Virus record (IMG/VR): IMGVR_UViG_2541047877_000007
DNA: 47,135 nt
Reading direction: 5' to 3' (one strand)
Origin: a virus
Lineage: Duplodnaviria > Heunggongvirae > Uroviricota > Caudoviricetes
The translations under genes were made by a program, and so were the position numbers. This document shows positions 36,532-45,496 of this stretch, piece by piece. Each line of letters begins with the position of its first letter. The stretch's first letter is position 1. Under the pieces are notes generated by a model. It had not been told where the DNA came from and ran no database searches. It saw only the letters and a list, made by a program, of their open reading frames with translations.

Positions 36532-38319
36532 ATGGACGATATTAATATCAGCCTCGACGAACTTAACACTATTGATTTATCCCCCTTAATCCAGAGTAAG
36601 CTGCCAGTTACCTGCTTTGATATCACAAAGTATCTTTCTAGCCTAGGTGATGGAAGAGCGGAGATAAGACTGCTAACCCATATTTGCGGTTTTCACTTTC
36701 GTCCCGAAAATCCACAGGTACCATTTGGTCCGTGCTTTCAAAGCAGCCAAGGTAGATCTGCAATTCCGGATGACATTAACGGGTTGTCGCTGGAGGTACT
36801 TTCTCAATTTTGCCCGACGATAGAGCTACCCGAACTTCAAGCTCGTATTGCTGATACACTTTGGGTTCGTAAAATTGGTGGAATCCGTTTTCCTTTGCTG
36901 GCAGTCCGTGCTTATTATGCGTCCAGTATAGCTATTATGACATCGCAAGGGACGTGGGTTAGTGCTTTAGAACGCCTAGAGCGTGCGCTTAGGCTGTGTT
37001 GTTTTTTTCGAAAGAATACTGATTTCAGGGATGAATTTGATCAGCTTTCGGCACATCTACTAGCAGAGTATGAACGTACCAGAGAACAAGGCGATTCACC
37101 TTATCCGCTGCGACTCCTGCAACTCGATATCGACTGTAAAGTGAGTGAGCCATCTTTTATTGCCCAGGAACTCCTGTTTCTGACAAAAAACTATCTGGCT
37201 CAAAAATTATTTTCATTTGCCGTCGATGCCTGTAAAACCGCAATCACGATTGCGAATAGGTGCTGTGACAGAGATACACAGTTTGAATTCTGGCGGCTTC
37301 TTGCCGATACACATCTGGAAGAGTCAAAATTCCAAGATGGCGGTATGATTTCGGCAGCCTGCATGCAGAATGCTATTGAAGCACTGGCTAATATTCCAGG
37401 AACCCGAATAGAACGTCTTGCGCTGTATGAAGAAATGCGTGATTACCAAATCGAATCCCGTCACCAGATGTCTATCCTTCAGTCTCCCCCTCAAGATATT
37501 AGTGAGATTGTCCATCAAGCCAAGAGTCGGGTAGTCGGAAGAGATATGTTTGATATGGTTTTCAGACTTGCGATGCTGGTCTGTCGGCCAACCAGCATTG
37601 AGAGACTTAAGGCTCAAGCAATAGAACAAAAGGCCAACAGCATAGCTTGGATGTTTGGATCAACACATATTGATCATGAGGGAATGACACTTGCTCGCAT
37701 ACCCGCAGGATTGGGGATTGATGATGCAAATGGGGCAGTTATTTGGCCCATAATGATGACGAGAATGCGTATCGACCATGAGTTGGCAGTAGCTGGGCAA
37801 ATTATTCCTGCTACAGATGAGATCACAATGAAATATCCAATCTCGGAGGCGTTTTTTCGCGATATGTTCATCAATCATCCCTTCATCCCGTTTGGGCATG
37901 AAGAGTTTTTCATCAAGGGTATGGTTTGCGGTTTCAATGGAGATTTTATGACGGCATGCCACGTGTTGATTCCCCAGATCGAAAATAGTCTGAGATATGT
38001 GGCTAAAATTAAAGGTGAGGAACCATCGCAGCTTCACGGGGACGGTTCGCAAGAGCGAAATGGACTCAAGGGATTACTAGATAATCCACTGATTATTGAA
38101 GCTTTCGGCGTAGACATAATTGGCAATCTTCAGGCCTTACTGGTAGATAAAATCTATGGTGATTTACGAAATCAACTAGCTCACGGATATGTGCCTGCCG
38201 GTTACTACAATCAACCTCCCTGCATTTTTGCATGGTGGCTTGTATTGCACATTCTAATGAACCCTACGGCGAGATACTGGCAAGCCACTTATGGCCAAGA
38301 GAGTGAGGCTCAGACTTAA
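36532..38319 (+). CDS. orphan 595-aa protein with C-terminal HEPN-like R-N-x-x-x-H motif
   Basis: AAGGTGA RBS 4 nt upstream of ATG; motif DLRNQLAHG at residues 544-552 (38161-38187); visibly lower GC than flanking phage genes; no other family motif recognised by eye. Confidence 0.8.
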   Translation: MDDINISLDELNTIDLSPLIQSKLPVTCFDITKYLSSLGDGRAEIRLLTHICGFHFRPENPQVPFGPCFQSSQGRSAIPDDINGLSLEVLSQFCPTIELPELQARIADTLWVRKIGGIRFPLLAVRAYYASSIAIMTSQGTWVSALERLERALRLCCFFRKNTDFRDEFDQLSAHLLAEYERTREQGDSPYPLRLLQLDIDCKVSEPSFIAQELLFLTKNYLAQKLFSFAVDACKTAITIANRCCDRDTQFEFWRLLADTHLEESKFQDGGMISAACMQNAIEALANIPGTRIERLALYEEMRDYQIESRHQMSILQSPPQDISEIVHQAKSRVVGRDMFDMVFRLAMLVCRPTSIERLKAQAIEQKANSIAWMFGSTHIDHEGMTLARIPAGLGIDDANGAVIWPIMMTRMRIDHELAVAGQIIPATDEITMKYPISEAFFRDMFINHPFIPFGHEEFFIKGMVCGFNGDFMTACHVLIPQIENSLRYVAKIKGEEPSQLHGDGSQERNGLKGLLDNPLIIEAFGVDIIGNLQALLVDKIYGDLRNQLAHGYVPAGYYNQPPCIFAWWLVLHILMNPTARYWQATYGQESEAQT

Positions 38320-38537: not shown

Positions 38538-38939
38538 TTATCCCTGATAAAATGCCAGTATGCGCTGCATAACTTCACTCATCCGGCACTCGCGACAGAT
38601 TATGTTTAGGCGACTGTCGTAGCGACGTATTTCTCCATCAGGTAACGACCAGATAAGGTCCGGATCAACCACAGCTGTTTTCTTCACCTTTGCCCTCGAG
38701 AGTTTTTTGCGGGCGTTTTGCCAGTCCTTACGCGCCTGTTCAGACGGGAATAACCCGTAGCCGGAGTTGTATACATCGCCACTGGCTACCAGCTCTCTGG
38801 CAAGAACGCTCATCAGATATCTAGTCGCACCTGTTTTAGCTTCCAGTTGCCGTAACGTCTCACGACCGCTCTGGCGCACGAGTTCCACCACCTGCCCTTT
38901 AATTTTTTCCCGCTCTTCTTGTGTAAAAACTTTTGCCAC
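38538..38939 (-). CDS. hypothetical protein downstream of the replication initiator
   Basis: 133-aa ORF, basic, no motif recognised. Confidence 0.45.
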   Translation of the reverse strand: MAKVFTQEEREKIKGQVVELVRQSGRETLRQLEAKTGATRYLMSVLARELVASGDVYNSGYGLFPSEQARKDWQNARKKLSRAKVKKTAVVDPDLIWSLPDGEIRRYDSRLNIICRECRMSEVMQRILAFYQG

Positions 38940-38979: not shown

Positions 38980-39999
38980 TTATCCTCTGAAACCAGGCGG
39001 AATTTCTGTATCCGGTTCAGAAATATGATTAACACAACGCTGTACAGGTGAACGCCCCAGGCGGATGACCAGTTCGTCCCATTTTTCGCGGAGCTTTGAC
39101 GGGCTCATGATGTTTTTTACCCAGAATGGATCCCGCTGTACCCGACCAAACATTTCACAAATTTGTCTGTGGCTTCTGCCATCCAGCATCCGCATTGTGC
39201 GCACATCATTGGCCCAGACAGTCCAGTTAGGCTCTTTTGGTCGCATGATCTCGCCATCATCACTGGCGGCCTGTTCGTAGAGACCCACGATCCGCCCCCA
39301 TATCCACTGCGCACACGCCAGATCCTCCTGGCTACCCCACTGGCGTTTTTTCGCACTAAACACAACTGCGCCAGGGTGCCGGATTAAAAAATCCTGTTCA
39401 GCCGTCTGCGGGTCCGGTTGCGAAGCTTCCGGACGAAAAGTGTTTTTATTCTCTGTAGTAATCTCTGTTGTATTCTCTGTAGGATCATCGGGCCATTTTG
39501 ACCCGATGACATTGGGTCGTTTTGAACCAATGGAGCGTTTCATTTTGACCTCTTCCATCGTGTCATTTTGACCTGATGGAGCGGCGCATTTTGAACCGAT
39601 GGATTCGCTCAATTTGCCATCATCTAAAAGCTCGCTTCCATAGTTAATCGTGTAGAAATTGGTCATATCGCGCTTTGATTTATTGAGCTTTTCACAACGC
39701 AAAAGCCCCAGCGTTTTCAGACTTGCAAACGCGCGCTTTAACGTTGACTCTGACCAGAATGGGAACTGTTCCAGCCATTGTTCCGTTGTGTTGTAAATCC
39801 AGCGAACACCATCACATTCCATGCCGGAATTGGTATCTCTCAACCAGTAATGCAACTGCTGCAACACAATGGCTTCATTTAAGCCAATCTTCATCGCAAG
39901 CTGTGTGTTTATAACCAGTGGGCGTTCAGCAAAAAGAAGGCTCATAATTCCATCCAGCTTTTTGTTGGTATTGCTGTCGATACGCAAGTTTGAAAGCAA
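38980..39999 (-). CDS. replication initiator (lambda O-like role) containing the origin iterons
   Basis: 339 aa; the gene carries an internal array of direct DNA repeats encoding a repetitive linker (SIGSK.. repeats); start codon uncertain (internal ATG at 39945 also possible). Confidence 0.7.
   Translation of the reverse strand: MLSNLRIDSNTNKKLDGIMSLLFAERPLVINTQLAMKIGLNEAIVLQQLHYWLRDTNSGMECDGVRWIYNTTEQWLEQFPFWSESTLKRAFASLKTLGLLRCEKLNKSKRDMTNFYTINYGSELLDDGKLSESIGSKCAAPSGQNDTMEEVKMKRSIGSKRPNVIGSKWPDDPTENTTEITTENKNTFRPEASQPDPQTAEQDFLIRHPGAVVFSAKKRQWGSQEDLACAQWIWGRIVGLYEQAASDDGEIMRPKEPNWTVWANDVRTMRMLDGRSHRQICEMFGRVQRDPFWVKNIMSPSKLREKWDELVIRLGRSPVQRCVNHISEPDTEIPPGFRG
39455..39625. repeat. candidate replication origin: iteron array inside the initiator gene
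   Basis: Five to six copies of c(a/g)ttttga(a/c)c-N-gatgga at about 23-bp spacing (39494-39610), preceded by three copies of tctctgt(a/t)g. Confidence 0.6.
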
Positions 40000-40447
40000 T
40001 TGCTTTTTCTATAAGTTCGTCAGTTTCACGATCCACTACGGCAGGATCAGCAAAAAGCAGTCCGGACTCCACCACATCGCCATATTCTTTGTTTAACCCG
40101 GCGATCATGTACGTGATGCTTTTTCCGTCACTAATTTCACGATACAACCTGAAATCATTAATCCGGATAGCCTCCATAATTGCAGGCACTAGCGCCGTGA
40201 ACTTTTCACGCTTATCCCTGGTGTCGATAGCCTTCCAGCGTTCGAATATCTTCACTCGATTAACGCCAAGCGCTCGCTGATCAACCGCGCCACCTTCATC
40301 TGTGACACGCTGAACATCGATGTTCGGGCGCTCTTTCAAAGCCCAGAATGCTTCAGTGATTAATATCGTCGCCTGCTCCTGTGTCATTCCTGGTCGACAT
40401 ATCCAGGCATCCAGAGCCTCACGAGCCTGTTCAGGAGTGATTTTCAT
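39926..40447 (-). CDS. YdaT-like early protein
   Basis: 173-aa ORF downstream of the Cro-like gene; resemblance to Rac YdaT is recalled only loosely. Confidence 0.45.
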   Translation of the reverse strand: MKITPEQAREALDAWICRPGMTQEQATILITEAFWALKERPNIDVQRVTDEGGAVDQRALGVNRVKIFERWKAIDTRDKREKFTALVPAIMEAIRINDFRLYREISDGKSITYMIAGLNKEYGDVVESGLLFADPAVVDRETDELIEKAIAFKLAYRQQYQQKAGWNYEPSFC

Positions 40448-40658
40448 TGTTCAACCGCCCCGCCCGCTTCGTCTTACGATATTCGTCATAAACCTTGGGA
40501 TCATACAGAAGCTCGCCGCCAGATGCCTCCTGTAGACGCATCGCGCGACCTTCAGGAACCAGCTCTTGCCATTGAGAAACAGCAGATGGGTCAACGCCAG
40601 CAGCTTTCGCTACTTTGGCTTTCGTACCGTAAAAATTAATTACGTCTGATTTAAACAT
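40431..40658 (-). CDS. Cro/YdaS-like HTH regulator
   Basis: 75 aa from ATG 40658; HTH-like segment (GTKAKVAKAAGVDPSAVSQW); divergent from the repressor gene; the track start at 40685 is a TTG. Confidence 0.65.
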   Translation of the reverse strand: MFKSDVINFYGTKAKVAKAAGVDPSAVSQWQELVPEGRAMRLQEASGGELLYDPKVYDEYRKTKRAGRLNNENHS

Positions 40659-40670
40659 CGCACCTCCAGT

Positions 40671-40686
40671 ATTGAGTTTTCTCAAT
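40671..40686. promoter_or_regulatory. candidate operator palindrome in the repressor/cro divergent region
   Basis: attgagttttctcaat (TTGAG-N4-CTCAA) at the start of the repressor ORF; tcaag/tcaagg direct repeats just downstream. Confidence 0.4.
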
Positions 40687-41143
40687 GCTAATCACTCAAG
40701 GAATCTCAAGTCAAGGGTTATTAAGATATCTAAATATGAACGAGAAAACTTTAGGTCAACGCATTAGAGAAAGACGTAAGCAGGTAGGTTTAAGTCAAAA
40801 CGGTTTAAGCAAAGCTGCTGGCGTATCTGGCTCATCAATTTCATTATGGGAAAGTGACCATACAGCCCCGCGCGGGCAAAATTTGCATCGCCTCGCCGAG
40901 GTATTGCAATGTTCACCAACCTGGATACTGTTTGGCGACGAGGACAAAACACCAGCTCCCCCTGTTTCACTCGATAGTGCCTTAGACTTATCGGAAGATG
41001 AGTTAGAGATGCTGCGTTTGTATCGCGCACTTCCTAAATCAGAGCAACAAGCACAACTCAGCGAACTCCGCGCCCGCGTTGAGAATTTTAATCGCCTGTT
41101 CACCGAGCTATTAGAGGCTCGCAAACGCAACAAGCATCAATAA
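40685..41143 (+). CDS. XRE-family prophage repressor (CI/RacR-like)
   Basis: 152 aa with XRE-type HTH (LSQNGLSKAAGVSGSSISLWES); alternative start at ATG 40736. Confidence 0.75.
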   Translation: MLITQGISSQGLLRYLNMNEKTLGQRIRERRKQVGLSQNGLSKAAGVSGSSISLWESDHTAPRGQNLHRLAEVLQCSPTWILFGDEDKTPAPPVSLDSALDLSEDELEMLRLYRALPKSEQQAQLSELRARVENFNRLFTELLEARKRNKHQ

Positions 41144-43024: not shown

Positions 43025-45496
43025 ATGAGTAAAGTCTTTATTTGCGCCGCTATTCCTGACGAACTGGCAACAAGGGAAGAAGGCGCTGTGGCTGTAGCCA
43101 CAGCCATTGAAGCTGGCGACGAACGCCGTGCTCGAGCAAAATTTCACTGGCAATTCCTGGAACATTATCCGGCTGCTCAGGACTGCGCTTATAAATTTAT
43201 TGTCTGCGAGGATAAACCTGGCATACCCCGCCCTGCCCTCGATTCATGGGATGCTGAATATATGCAGGAAAACCGCTGGGATGAGGAGTCTGCTTCTTTT
43301 GTCCCGGTTGAGACTGAATCCGATCCGATGAACGTCACTTTTGACAAGCTGGCCCCTGAAGTACAGAACGCTGTCATGGTTAAGTTCGACACATGTGAAA
43401 ACATCACCGTTGATATGGTTATTAGCGCACAGGAATTGTTGCAGGAAGACATGGCAACATTCGACGGACATATCGTTGAAGCGTTGATGAAAATGCCAGA
43501 AGTTAACGCCATGTATCCGGAGCTTAAGTTGCACGCCATTGGGTGGGTTAAGCATAAATGTATTCCTGGTGCTAAATGGCCCGAAATTCAGGCAGAGATG
43601 CGCATCTGGAAAAAACGTCGCGAAGGTGAACGCAAGGAAACCGGAAAATACACGTCTGTTGTTGATCTCGCCCGCGCCAGAGCCAATCAACAGTACACTG
43701 AAAATTCAACAGGAAAAATCAGCCCGGTCATTGCTGCCATTCATCGCGAATACAAGCAGACATGGAAAACACTGGATGACGAACTGGCCTACGCTCTCTG
43801 GCCTGGTGATGTGGATGCCGGAAACATTGACGGCAGCATCCATCGCTGGGCAAAAAATGAAGTTATCGATAACGACCGCGAAGACTGGAAGCGTATCTCG
43901 GCATCAATGCGCAAACAGCCTGATGCCCTTCGCTACGACCGCCAAACTATTTTTGGCCTTGTCCGTGAACGTCCGATCGACATTCACAAAGATCCCGTAG
44001 CACTGAACAAATATATCTGCGAATACCTGACGACAAAGGGCGTGTTTGAGAATGAAGAAACAGACCTGGGCACTGTTGATGTTCTCCAGTCATCAGAAAC
44101 ACAAACTGATGCAGTGGAAACTGAGGTATCTGATATCCCAAAAAATGAAACCGCGCCGGAAGCTGAACCATCTGTAGAGCGTGAGGGGCCGTTCTATTTC
44201 CTCTTCGCAGATAAGGACGGAGAAAAATACGGTCGCGCAAACAAACTTTCTGGTCTGGATAAGGCACTGGCTGCTGGCGCCACTGAAATCACAAAAGAAG
44301 AATATTTTGCCCGAAAAAATGGCACATACACGGGCTTACCGCAAAATGTAGATACCGCTGAAGATTCAGAACAACCAGAGCCGATAAAAGTTACCGCTGA
44401 CGAAGTAAACAAAATTATGCAGGCAGCCAATATCATCCAGCCTGACGCCGATAAGTTGCTTGCTGCATCACGTGGTGAATTTGTTGAAGGGATTAGTGAC
44501 CCGAATGATCCGAAATGGGTTAAGGGGATCCAGACCCGCGATTCTGTGAACCAGAACCAGCATGAATCGGAACGGAACTACCAAAAAGCGGAACAAAACA
44601 GCCCAAATGCGTTACAAAACGAGCCAGAAACGAAACAGCCTGAATCAGTGGCGCAACAGGAAGTGGAAAAAGTCTGCACCGCCTGCGGTCAGACCGGCGG
44701 CGGCAACTGCCCTGATTGTGGCGCGGTAATGGGCGACGCAACATACCAGGAAACATTCGATGAAGAGTATCAGGTTGAAGTTCAGGAAGATGATCCGGAG
44801 AAAATGGAAGGCGCTGAACATCCACACAAGGAGAACACTGGCGGCAATCAGCATCACGATAGCGATAATGAAACTGGCGAGACGGCAGATCACTCAATTA
44901 AGGTGAACGGTCATCACGAAATCACATCCACCAGCAGGACGTGTGACCATCTAATGATCGACCTTGAAACCATGGGAAAAAATCCTGATGCCCCGATCAT
45001 CTCAATAGGTGCAATATTTTTCGATCCGCAAACCGGAGATATGGGACCGGAATTTATTAAGACTATCGATCTGGAAACTGCTGGCGGAGTCATTGATCGG
45101 GACACCATTAAATGGTGGTTTAAGCAATCACGCGAAGCGCAATCTGCCATTATGACCGATGAAATCCCGTTAGATGATGCACTGTTACAATTGCGGGAAT
45201 TTATCGACGAAAACTCCGGTGAATTTTTTGTTCAGGTCTGGGGAAATGGAGCCAACTTCGACAACACGATTTTGCGCCGTTCATACGAACGGCAGGGGAT
45301 CCCCTGCCCGTGGCGTTACTACAACGATCGCGATGTACGCACAATCGTTGAGCTGGGGAAAGCCATAGACTTCGATGCCAGAACGGCTATTCAATTCGAA
45401 GGTGAGCGCCATAATGCACTTGATGACGCCCGTTACCAGGCAAAATACGTTTCAGTTATCTGGCAAAAACTGATCCCGAGTCAGGCTGATTCTTAA
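43025..45496 (+). CDS. large early protein with C-terminal DEDDh (DnaQ-like) 3'-5' exonuclease domain and internal zinc ribbon
   Basis: 823 aa; Exo motifs MIDLETMG, VWGNGANFDNTIL and HNALDDARY in the last 180 residues; CTACG...CPDCG ribbon near residue 555; occupies the exo/recE position of a Rac-like early operon. Confidence 0.8.
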   Translation: MSKVFICAAIPDELATREEGAVAVATAIEAGDERRARAKFHWQFLEHYPAAQDCAYKFIVCEDKPGIPRPALDSWDAEYMQENRWDEESASFVPVETESDPMNVTFDKLAPEVQNAVMVKFDTCENITVDMVISAQELLQEDMATFDGHIVEALMKMPEVNAMYPELKLHAIGWVKHKCIPGAKWPEIQAEMRIWKKRREGERKETGKYTSVVDLARARANQQYTENSTGKISPVIAAIHREYKQTWKTLDDELAYALWPGDVDAGNIDGSIHRWAKNEVIDNDREDWKRISASMRKQPDALRYDRQTIFGLVRERPIDIHKDPVALNKYICEYLTTKGVFENEETDLGTVDVLQSSETQTDAVETEVSDIPKNETAPEAEPSVEREGPFYFLFADKDGEKYGRANKLSGLDKALAAGATEITKEEYFARKNGTYTGLPQNVDTAEDSEQPEPIKVTADEVNKIMQAANIIQPDADKLLAASRGEFVEGISDPNDPKWVKGIQTRDSVNQNQHESERNYQKAEQNSPNALQNEPETKQPESVAQQEVEKVCTACGQTGGGNCPDCGAVMGDATYQETFDEEYQVEVQEDDPEKMEGAEHPHKENTGGNQHHDSDNETGETADHSIKVNGHHEITSTSRTCDHLMIDLETMGKNPDAPIISIGAIFFDPQTGDMGPEFIKTIDLETAGGVIDRDTIKWWFKQSREAQSAIMTDEIPLDDALLQLREFIDENSGEFFVQVWGNGANFDNTILRRSYERQGIPCPWRYYNDRDVRTIVELGKAIDFDARTAIQFEGERHNALDDARYQAKYVSVIWQKLIPSQADS

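Follow-up and report, generated by a model that had tools for sequence, protein, structure and literature searches.

Phage lambda carries its replication origin within the initiator gene O. Lambdoid iterons, of which lambda has four and Stx phages have six, are 19-bp imperfect inverted repeats with an A-tract, and they adjoin an AT-rich region within the central part of O (PMC7466680). The prophages of Escherichia coli O157 Sakai were earlier sorted into lambda-type, DnaC-type and DnaB-type (PMC2669165). In the DnaC-type lambdoid modules (ydaU-ydaV-ydaW of the K-12 Rac prophage, and those of Sakai Sp4, Sp10 and Sp12) the initiator ends in ...IPPGFRG and genes of the DUF977/DUF1627 type lie downstream. 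Lambda itself bypasses DnaC. A further relative is DopC, a domesticated O-like protein with a DnaT C-terminal element, which is encoded beside the P-like loader DopE; the parallel between DopC-DopE and the host genes for DnaT and DnaC has been drawn before (Brezellec 2017, PMC5509034). The literature itself regards the way in which DnaT brings DnaB/DnaC to the restart fork as unsettled (PMC5778457, PMC11087952, PMC13377028). The present work concerns the replication module of IMG/VR record IMGVR_UViG_2541047877_000007, a stretch of 47,135 nt (hereafter the window) from a lambdoid (mEp460-like) temperate phage or prophage, and in particular the C-terminal tail of its initiator protein.

The window initiator has the same ending as the DnaC-type initiators but carries its own N-terminal domain and an O-type domain, where the N-terminal part of Rac YdaU is DUF1376, and its module is without the ~1.5-kb dnaC-like + DUF1627 segment. 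The ending is part of a DnaT-like tail, and the reading somewhat favoured here is that this tail is a docking peptide that recruits host DnaB-DnaC to the lambda-style, iteron-bearing origin of a loader-less phage.

The DnaT-like tail of the initiator

The initiator gene (nt 38980-39945, minus strand) matches PHROG 391, 'replication initiation O-like' (E = 3.5e-92). Its start is ambiguous (TTG 39999 or ATG 39945). The preliminary description took the open reading frame (ORF) from the upstream TTG, giving 339 aa; the ORF stands, but the protein is probably 321 aa long from ATG 39945, because DNA homology with sister phages begins exactly there and the annotations use the same codon (966 nt in mEp460_ev081 and HannyBb). 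Residue numbers below are those of the 339-aa reading. The initiator gene shares ~20 nt with the end of the cII-like gene, and its annotation is inconsistent, ranging from 'hypothetical protein' (PGAP, 1588 genomes) and 'Primosomal protein I' (RAST) to 'replication initiation O-like' (Pharokka) and 'DNA replication protein O'.

The C-terminal 20 residues (QRCVNHISEPDTEIPPGFRG, aa 320-339; nt 38983-39042, minus strand) match the extreme C-terminus of E. coli DnaT (residues 160-179) at 14 of 20 positions (70%; pairwise E = 1e-7), and the protein ends in ISEPDTEIPPGFRG, which corresponds to the conserved DnaT tail motif SEPDxxIPxGFRG. AlphaFold2 gives a predicted local distance difference test (pLDDT) score below 50 for most of the tail, which is therefore predicted to be disordered; the tail of DnaT is flexible by nuclear magnetic resonance (PMC5778457), a flexible tail being common to both proteins. 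The rest of the initiator does not resemble DnaT. BLASTP aligns the last 20 residues only and finds neither the N-terminal trimerisation domain nor the acidic PriB-binding linker of DnaT in the window initiator, and the three-helix domain of DnaT that binds single-stranded DNA (ssDNA; PF17948) was also not found in it. As only the tail resembles DnaT, the RAST label 'Primosomal protein I' in mEp460 records can be traced to the tail by itself.

The body of the protein is of a different kind. Residues 165-312 align with lambda O 135-270 (BLASTP, 34% identity over 148 aa, E = 4e-27), and PHROG 391/277 also match; the lambda-O-type C-terminal helical domain spans aa 205-316 (nt 39052-39387, minus strand). 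An AlphaFold2 model of residues 200-339 shows a helical domain with pLDDT of 85-92 over most of its length. The homology to lambda O ends where the two tails begin: lambda O finishes with ...LTNTDWIYGVDL, and the window initiator has the DnaT-like tail instead. The N-terminal origin-specificity domain (~aa 19-125; nt 39625-39945, minus strand) is probably a winged helix; PHROG 6493, 428 and 11233 cover aa 18-191. It differs from the N-terminal domain of lambda O, as it gives no match to Pfam Phage_rep_O (PF04492), for which lambda O scores 5.7e-36. Searches of Pfam and NCBIfam found no domain in the initiator besides the tail, and in the PDB a sequence search matched the tail of DnaT and, by chance, YteR, with nothing else.

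Among 107 DnaT orthologues the SEPDxxIPxGFRG motif has a conservation of 0.89, equal to that of the ssDNA-binding bundle (0.89) and above that of the N-terminal domain and the linker (0.78 each). Conservation at this level makes it very likely that the tail of DnaT is functional. The tail is not confined to one kind of phage initiator. A search of viral contigs with a back-translated tail pattern matched at least 120 contigs, and the tail was found on at least six initiator architectures, two of them with O-type C-terminal domains, three with a different C-terminal region, and one with a genuine DnaT domain (PF17948, E = 4e-18). YdaU of the K-12 Rac prophage (DUF1376) also ends in this way (...VSLPDSAIPPGFRG). 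In the set retrieved with the pattern, conservation of tail positions 9-20 is circular, most of them having been fixed by the search pattern, and tail conservation was therefore judged from sets retrieved via the C-terminal domain or the DnaT bundle. All 144 initiators retrieved via the C-terminal domain alone keep the intact motif. Between lineages the DNA encoding the tail carries many synonymous differences while the peptide is kept, though the pattern had itself set half of the motif. Among the homologues of the O-type C-domain recovered by protein search are some with diverged tails, which retain just a terminal IPAGFRG, IPEGFRG, IPTGFRG or IPSGFRG. A DnaT-profile search of 1.8 billion cluster representatives returned many phage-type proteins of 250-580 aa ending in ...[DE]xxIPxGF[RN]G.

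The literature search turned up no description of phage initiators with a DnaT-like tail; the nearest account is that of DopC (Brezellec 2017, PMC5509034). DopC differs from the window initiator in that its O-like N-terminal part is fused to the DnaT C-terminal domain, the O-type C-terminal domain and the iterons being missing, and in that its partner is P-like. Since DopC, too, joins an O-like part to a DnaT C-terminal element, initiator/DnaT chimeras are a recurring theme.

A third recurrent initiator tail, ...GHGGN[LI][FL]EP[LV]D..EER..D[WR].., was seen after DnaT-type bundles (P0285, P0296, P0345, P0348 and P0351; loci L442-L447, L507 and L509), including some with class-A-like and class-B-like N-terminal domains. 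The next ORF downstream overlaps and is in some cases weakly P-like (E = 1e-12), in others of no recognised family and followed by a DUF1627-like gene.

Tail type and helicase loaders

In the window, the initiator stop codon is followed by a 40-nt spacer and then a DUF977/Ren-like gene (nt 38538-38939, minus strand; Pfam DUF977, E = 6e-27; PHROG 142, 'Ren-like exclusion protein', E = 1.9e-44), the C-terminus of which is weakly similar to lambda Ren. The gene order in lambda is cro-cII-O-P-ren; the window has this order with an empty P slot, the DUF977 gene occupying the position of ren and the spacer that of P. The preliminary description had reported a downstream gene of 133 aa and no recognisable loader, and on both counts it was right. 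A tblastn search of the whole window with lambda P, E. coli DnaC, Rac YdaV, E. coli DnaB and the DUF1627 protein gave a best E-value of 0.015, which was spurious, and no loader (lambda P, PF06992; DnaC/IstB AAA+, PF01695) turned up when the module proteins were scanned with Pfam and PHROG. These scans covered the initiator and the 133-aa protein, where a profile search had been proposed as a means of finding loader domains; there were none. The further idea of a loader domain fused to the initiator fails as regards an AAA+ or P domain, but the initiator does carry the DnaT-like C-terminal peptide, a probable substitute by way of recruiting the host loader. DUF977 was considered as a hidden loader and rejected, because it co-occurs with phage dnaC and is missing from other loader-less families.

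The suggestion that the replication module may be unusual or incomplete did not survive comparison with other genomes. The 2.3 kb around the origin match Escherichia phages mEp460_ev081 and HannyBb at 98% identity and PhiR42_1 at 97%. HannyBb (45.3 kb) was isolated on E. coli and has, as in the window, the initiator followed by the Ren-like gene; annotation and tblastn reveal no loader or helicase in its whole genome. The same loader-less layout is present in mEp460_ev081 across the 14 kb examined, and a contiguous initiator-DUF977 junction (>=80% coverage) occurs in 1588 of 5426 complete E. coli genomes (29%). Phages with the loader-less module are viable and the module is not defective, as the layout is shared by the isolated HannyBb and by these 1588 genomes.

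Sister phages show what may occupy the slot. From ATG to stop, the window initiator is 90.4% identical at the DNA level to those of L068, L087 and L115, and the homology breaks exactly at the initiator stop codon. In these three there follow ~1.5 kb encoding a dnaC-like gene, which begins 6 nt after the stop, and DUF1627, after which DUF977 resumes at 66-86% identity. Because sisters so close in the initiator carry this insert, the window holds a version of the known lambdoid DnaC-type module that is without a loader. Both arrangements downstream of a tail-bearing initiator are found within each of the initiator classes A, B and C: either the stop, 6 nt, a DnaC homologue of 246-248 aa, a DUF1627 gene and then DUF977, or, as in the window, the stop, 40 nt and DUF977. 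The phage DnaC homologues are 48-50% identical to host DnaC over the full length. The host dnaT-dnaC operon has the same succession of tail and dnaC, which recurs in the sister phages and in Rac ydaU-ydaV.

The relation between tail and loader was counted over ~370 loci retrieved via the C-terminal or the N-terminal domain and not via the tail; as a first profile scan of viral contigs gave only relatives of >=90% identity, contrast groups came from separate queries. Among 249 loci with DnaT-like/IPxGFRG tails, a DnaC-like gene comes next in 81, no loader in 168 and a P-like gene in 0, and among 123 loci with lambda-O-like tails (...W(N)xTxW...) a P-like gene comes next in 122, no loader in 1 and a DnaC-like gene in 0, though the loci are mostly closely related prophages and these counts overstate the number of independent events. 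Two natural swaps separate the tail from the remainder of the protein. Initiators of L284-286 have a class-B N-terminal domain and an O-type C-terminal domain 70-75% identical to that of the window, but their ending is ...EWNTAQGWEDVL and a P homologue comes next. In the unrelated MASSWIKVEVITPD ('MASSWIKV') family, P follows the lambda-like tail in 45/45 cases, and no loader follows the DnaT-like tail in 27/27. Taken together, the counts and the two swaps show that it is the tail, not the globular C-terminal domain, that covaries with the helicase-delivery system. The swaps and the multiple architectures are stronger evidence for this than the counts.

Several details of the DnaC-type loci were also noted. 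In most of the fetched loci (e.g., L021, +774..+1545 after the initiator stop) the DUF1627 gene directly follows the phage dnaC-like gene, and the two appear to be gained or lost together. The DUF1627 proteins are ~238-273 aa long with a winged-helix-like N-terminus. In K-12 Rac (L124, 2120-3730) the YdaU tail (...RQVNTVSLPDSAIPPGFRG) is followed after 6 nt by the DnaC homologue YdaV and then by the DUF1627-like YdaW. Residue A84 of DnaC lies within a short NALS motif that is invariant in 24 phage DnaC homologues encoded beside tail-bearing initiators. The dnaC1331 mutation (A84Y) blocks the PriA-PriB-DnaT pathway (PMC11087952), and the NALS motif is a possible clue to a tail-binding surface.

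Origin anatomy and proposed recruitment of the helicase

The preliminary description had noted five to six direct repeats at about 23-bp spacing and an adjacent triple of a shorter repeat, all within the initiator coding sequence, and had proposed a candidate origin placed as lambda ori is within O. The repeats and their position were confirmed. The iteron array (nt 39486-39624, minus strand) consists of six 23-nt units with dyad symmetry, starting at 39486, 39510, 39533, 39556, 39579 and 39602 (spacing 24, 23, 23, 23 and 23). Those at 39486, 39510, 39556 and 39579 were detected by repeat search, and those at 39533 and 39602 stand in the same 23-nt register. Four iterons, which resemble CATCGGGCCATTTTGACCCGATG and are internally dyad-symmetric, are strong and the other two degenerate; on the coding strand the strong iterons read CATCGGGTCAAAATGGCCCGATG, each an inverted repeat. 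The 10-nt core CRTTTTGAMC has five copies in 39494-39596 and one elsewhere in the 47 kb, where 0.62 copies would be expected for the window as a whole; not one of 100 shuffles reached six. The array covers codons 126-185 of the initiator ORF, a low-complexity linker between the N- and C-terminal domains. Read in the direction in which the initiator is transcribed, the iterons are immediately followed by an A-rich tract of 46 bp (nt 39440-39485, minus strand; GC 0.33, AT skew -0.63), a candidate DNA-unwinding element in which the repeat search found three 12-mers, TATTCTCTGTAG, at 39447-39482.

The likeness to lambda extends to the order of the parts. In both, the origin lies within the initiator gene, and dyad-symmetric iterons about two helical turns apart are followed by an A-rich or AT-rich tract in the same relative place. 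Lambda has four annotated iterons (ATCCCTCAAAACGAGGGA) and the window six of different sequence, the TCAAAAYG centre and complementary arms being common to both. The repeats also change with the protein: class-B initiators (N-terminal domain MSSKLHGLVWEG..., same C-terminal domain and tail) have a different repeat, TTGACCCGTCAA, with a 15-bp period in the same position, while class-A sisters retain the iteron cores of the window. The repeat sequence thus follows the DNA-binding domain, as iterons should. By analogy with lambda, it is well supported that the repeats form a lambda-type replication origin embedded in the initiator gene; the origin itself is of a known kind and nothing new. A DnaA-driven origin was rejected, there being no DnaA-box cluster near the origin.

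With these parts, the most likely course of initiation is the following. The N-terminal domain of the initiator would bind the six iterons, and the adjacent A-rich 12-mers would melt. The flexible DnaT-like tails displayed on the initiator complex would then capture host DnaB-DnaC or, in the sister phages, DnaB bound to the phage DnaC, and DnaB would be loaded at the opened origin. Within that complex the partner of the tail could be either DnaC or DnaB. Replication is predicted to be DnaC-dependent, unlike that of lambda, because the phage has no loader of its own and the tail would recruit host DnaB-DnaC.

Several points weigh against recruitment of DnaB-DnaC by the tail. Reviews describe a DnaT-DnaC contact as undocumented (PMC5778457; PMC11087952), and no experiment on record links the DnaT tail to DnaB or DnaC. 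A 2026 preprimosome paper speculates that it is DnaT's N-terminal domain that recruits DnaB/DnaC (PMC13377028), and this domain is absent from the window initiator; the role of DnaT residues 160-179 is not discussed in that cryo-electron microscopy study (PMC13377028) or in the reviews. The linkage of tail and dnaC could stem from shared ancestry and not from function. Many of the counted loci are close relatives and are not independent events. As to the origin, the A-rich tract is only moderately AT-rich, with a GC content of 0.33 versus 0.22 in lambda.

The main rival is a tail that recruits PriA (or PriA-PriB), the initiator opening the origin and the host restart primosome then loading DnaB as at D-loops or phiX174 pas sites. 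The C-terminal domain of DnaT docks on PriA in the preprimosome via a hydrophobic interface (PMC13377028), to which the tail could contribute, and loader-less phages must use some host pathway. This rival is nevertheless judged unlikely. The tail is encoded directly upstream of a DnaC gene in 81 loci, in Rac and in the host operon, and the alternative tail type pairs with P, another DnaB-delivery protein; these pairings point to the helicase-delivery step and not to fork recognition. A PriA-binding tail would, moreover, compete with host DnaT, which is still required in the PriA pathway.

The remaining explanations are the least likely. One regards the tail as a functionless hitch-hiker, left over from a mosaic junction at which dnaC was once attached to a gene of the DnaT/YdaU type. 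It would have been kept only because lambdoid recombination occurs at gene boundaries, and the helicase would be recruited by the O-type C-terminal domain or by an unrecognised factor such as DUF977. The position of the mosaic boundary exactly at the initiator stop agrees with this, as do the near identity of the tails of classes A-E, which is consistent with recent exchange, and the presence of DUF977 after the module in both configurations. The idea is nevertheless improbable: the peptide survives many synonymous differences in its DNA, diverged tails keep the terminal IPxGFRG alone, the motif is intact in 144/144 initiators retrieved via the C-terminal domain and is among the best conserved parts of cellular DnaT, and the same C-terminal domain with the other tail pairs with P. 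DUF977 cannot be the substitute, as it is found whether or not phage dnaC is present and other loader-less families lack it.

It is very improbable that the repeats are merely a repetitive protein linker with the true origin elsewhere. They do encode repeated peptides (IGSK, TEN/TTE) in a low-complexity linker, but each unit is inverted at the DNA level, which protein repeats do not need, and the core motif is nearly confined to the array. The spacing, the place in the gene and the adjacent A-rich tract agree with lambda ori (PMC7466680), and the iteron family switches with the N-terminal domain while the C-terminal half stays. That the prophage became replication-defective by deletion of its loader, as the dnaC-like and DUF1627 genes in the same slot of sister phages might suggest, is hardly credible when HannyBb is loader-less genome-wide, mEp460_ev081 has the same layout in the region examined, 1588 genomes combine this layout with an intact initiator, and other tail-bearing families are loader-less at 78/78 and 27/27 loci.

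Gene neighbourhood and wider meaning

The genes on the upstream side of the initiator are those of a lambdoid early region. Directly upstream lies a cII-like/YdaT-family gene (nt 39926-40447, minus strand; Pfam and PHROG scans), preceded by a Cro-like repressor gene (nt 40431-40658, minus strand, with the ORF extending to 40685; Pfam P22_Cro, E = 4e-16), for which relatives annotate 228 nt. A cI-like repressor gene is divergent from cro (nt 40685-41143, plus strand; HTH_3, E = 2e-15; PHROG repressor families). Just past the Ren-like gene, on the opposite strand (nt 36532-38319, plus strand), is the gene for a 595-aa DUF7380/DUF4209 protein that matches the PADLOC candidate defence system PDC-S39 (E = 8e-103). 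Its slot holds a different 1350-nt plus-strand gene in mEp460_ev081 and neither gene in HannyBb, and this varying content gives the stretch from ren to the nin region the look of a defence/moron hotspot. Elsewhere in the window, nt 43025-45496 (plus strand) encode an 823-aa protein annotated in relatives as an exonuclease (CP-933P type). Its ~190 C-terminal residues resemble a DnaQ-type 3'-5' exonuclease (DLET...H..D motifs, recognised by eye), and its N-terminal part is long, acidic and of low complexity.

A DnaT-tailed initiator without a loader is a variant that is very common yet uncharacterised. Isolated phages carry its module, as do ~29% of complete E. coli genomes, but the protein is a 'hypothetical protein' to PGAP and is mislabelled 'Primosomal protein I' by RAST, and no study of DnaB loading in such loader-less phages was found in the literature. 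More tentatively, initiator tails could be interchangeable adaptor peptides that set the route of the helicase, the lambda-O type leading to P and the IPxGFRG type to phage or host DnaC. The flexible tail of cellular DnaT, conserved but with no function assigned to it, would then be the long-sought recruiter of DnaB-DnaC in PriA-dependent restart, and in the dnaT-dnaC operon one would see an initiator-loader pair domesticated from a phage. This reading as a whole, for phage and domesticated initiators alike, is possible, though short of probable. A peptide of 13-20 residues, which is conserved in DnaT and which many unrelated initiators beside DnaC genes have had grafted onto them, emerges from the phage data as a concrete candidate for the handover of DnaB-DnaC by DnaT, and the covariation of tail and loader provides a testable handle on how DnaT recruits DnaB-DnaC.

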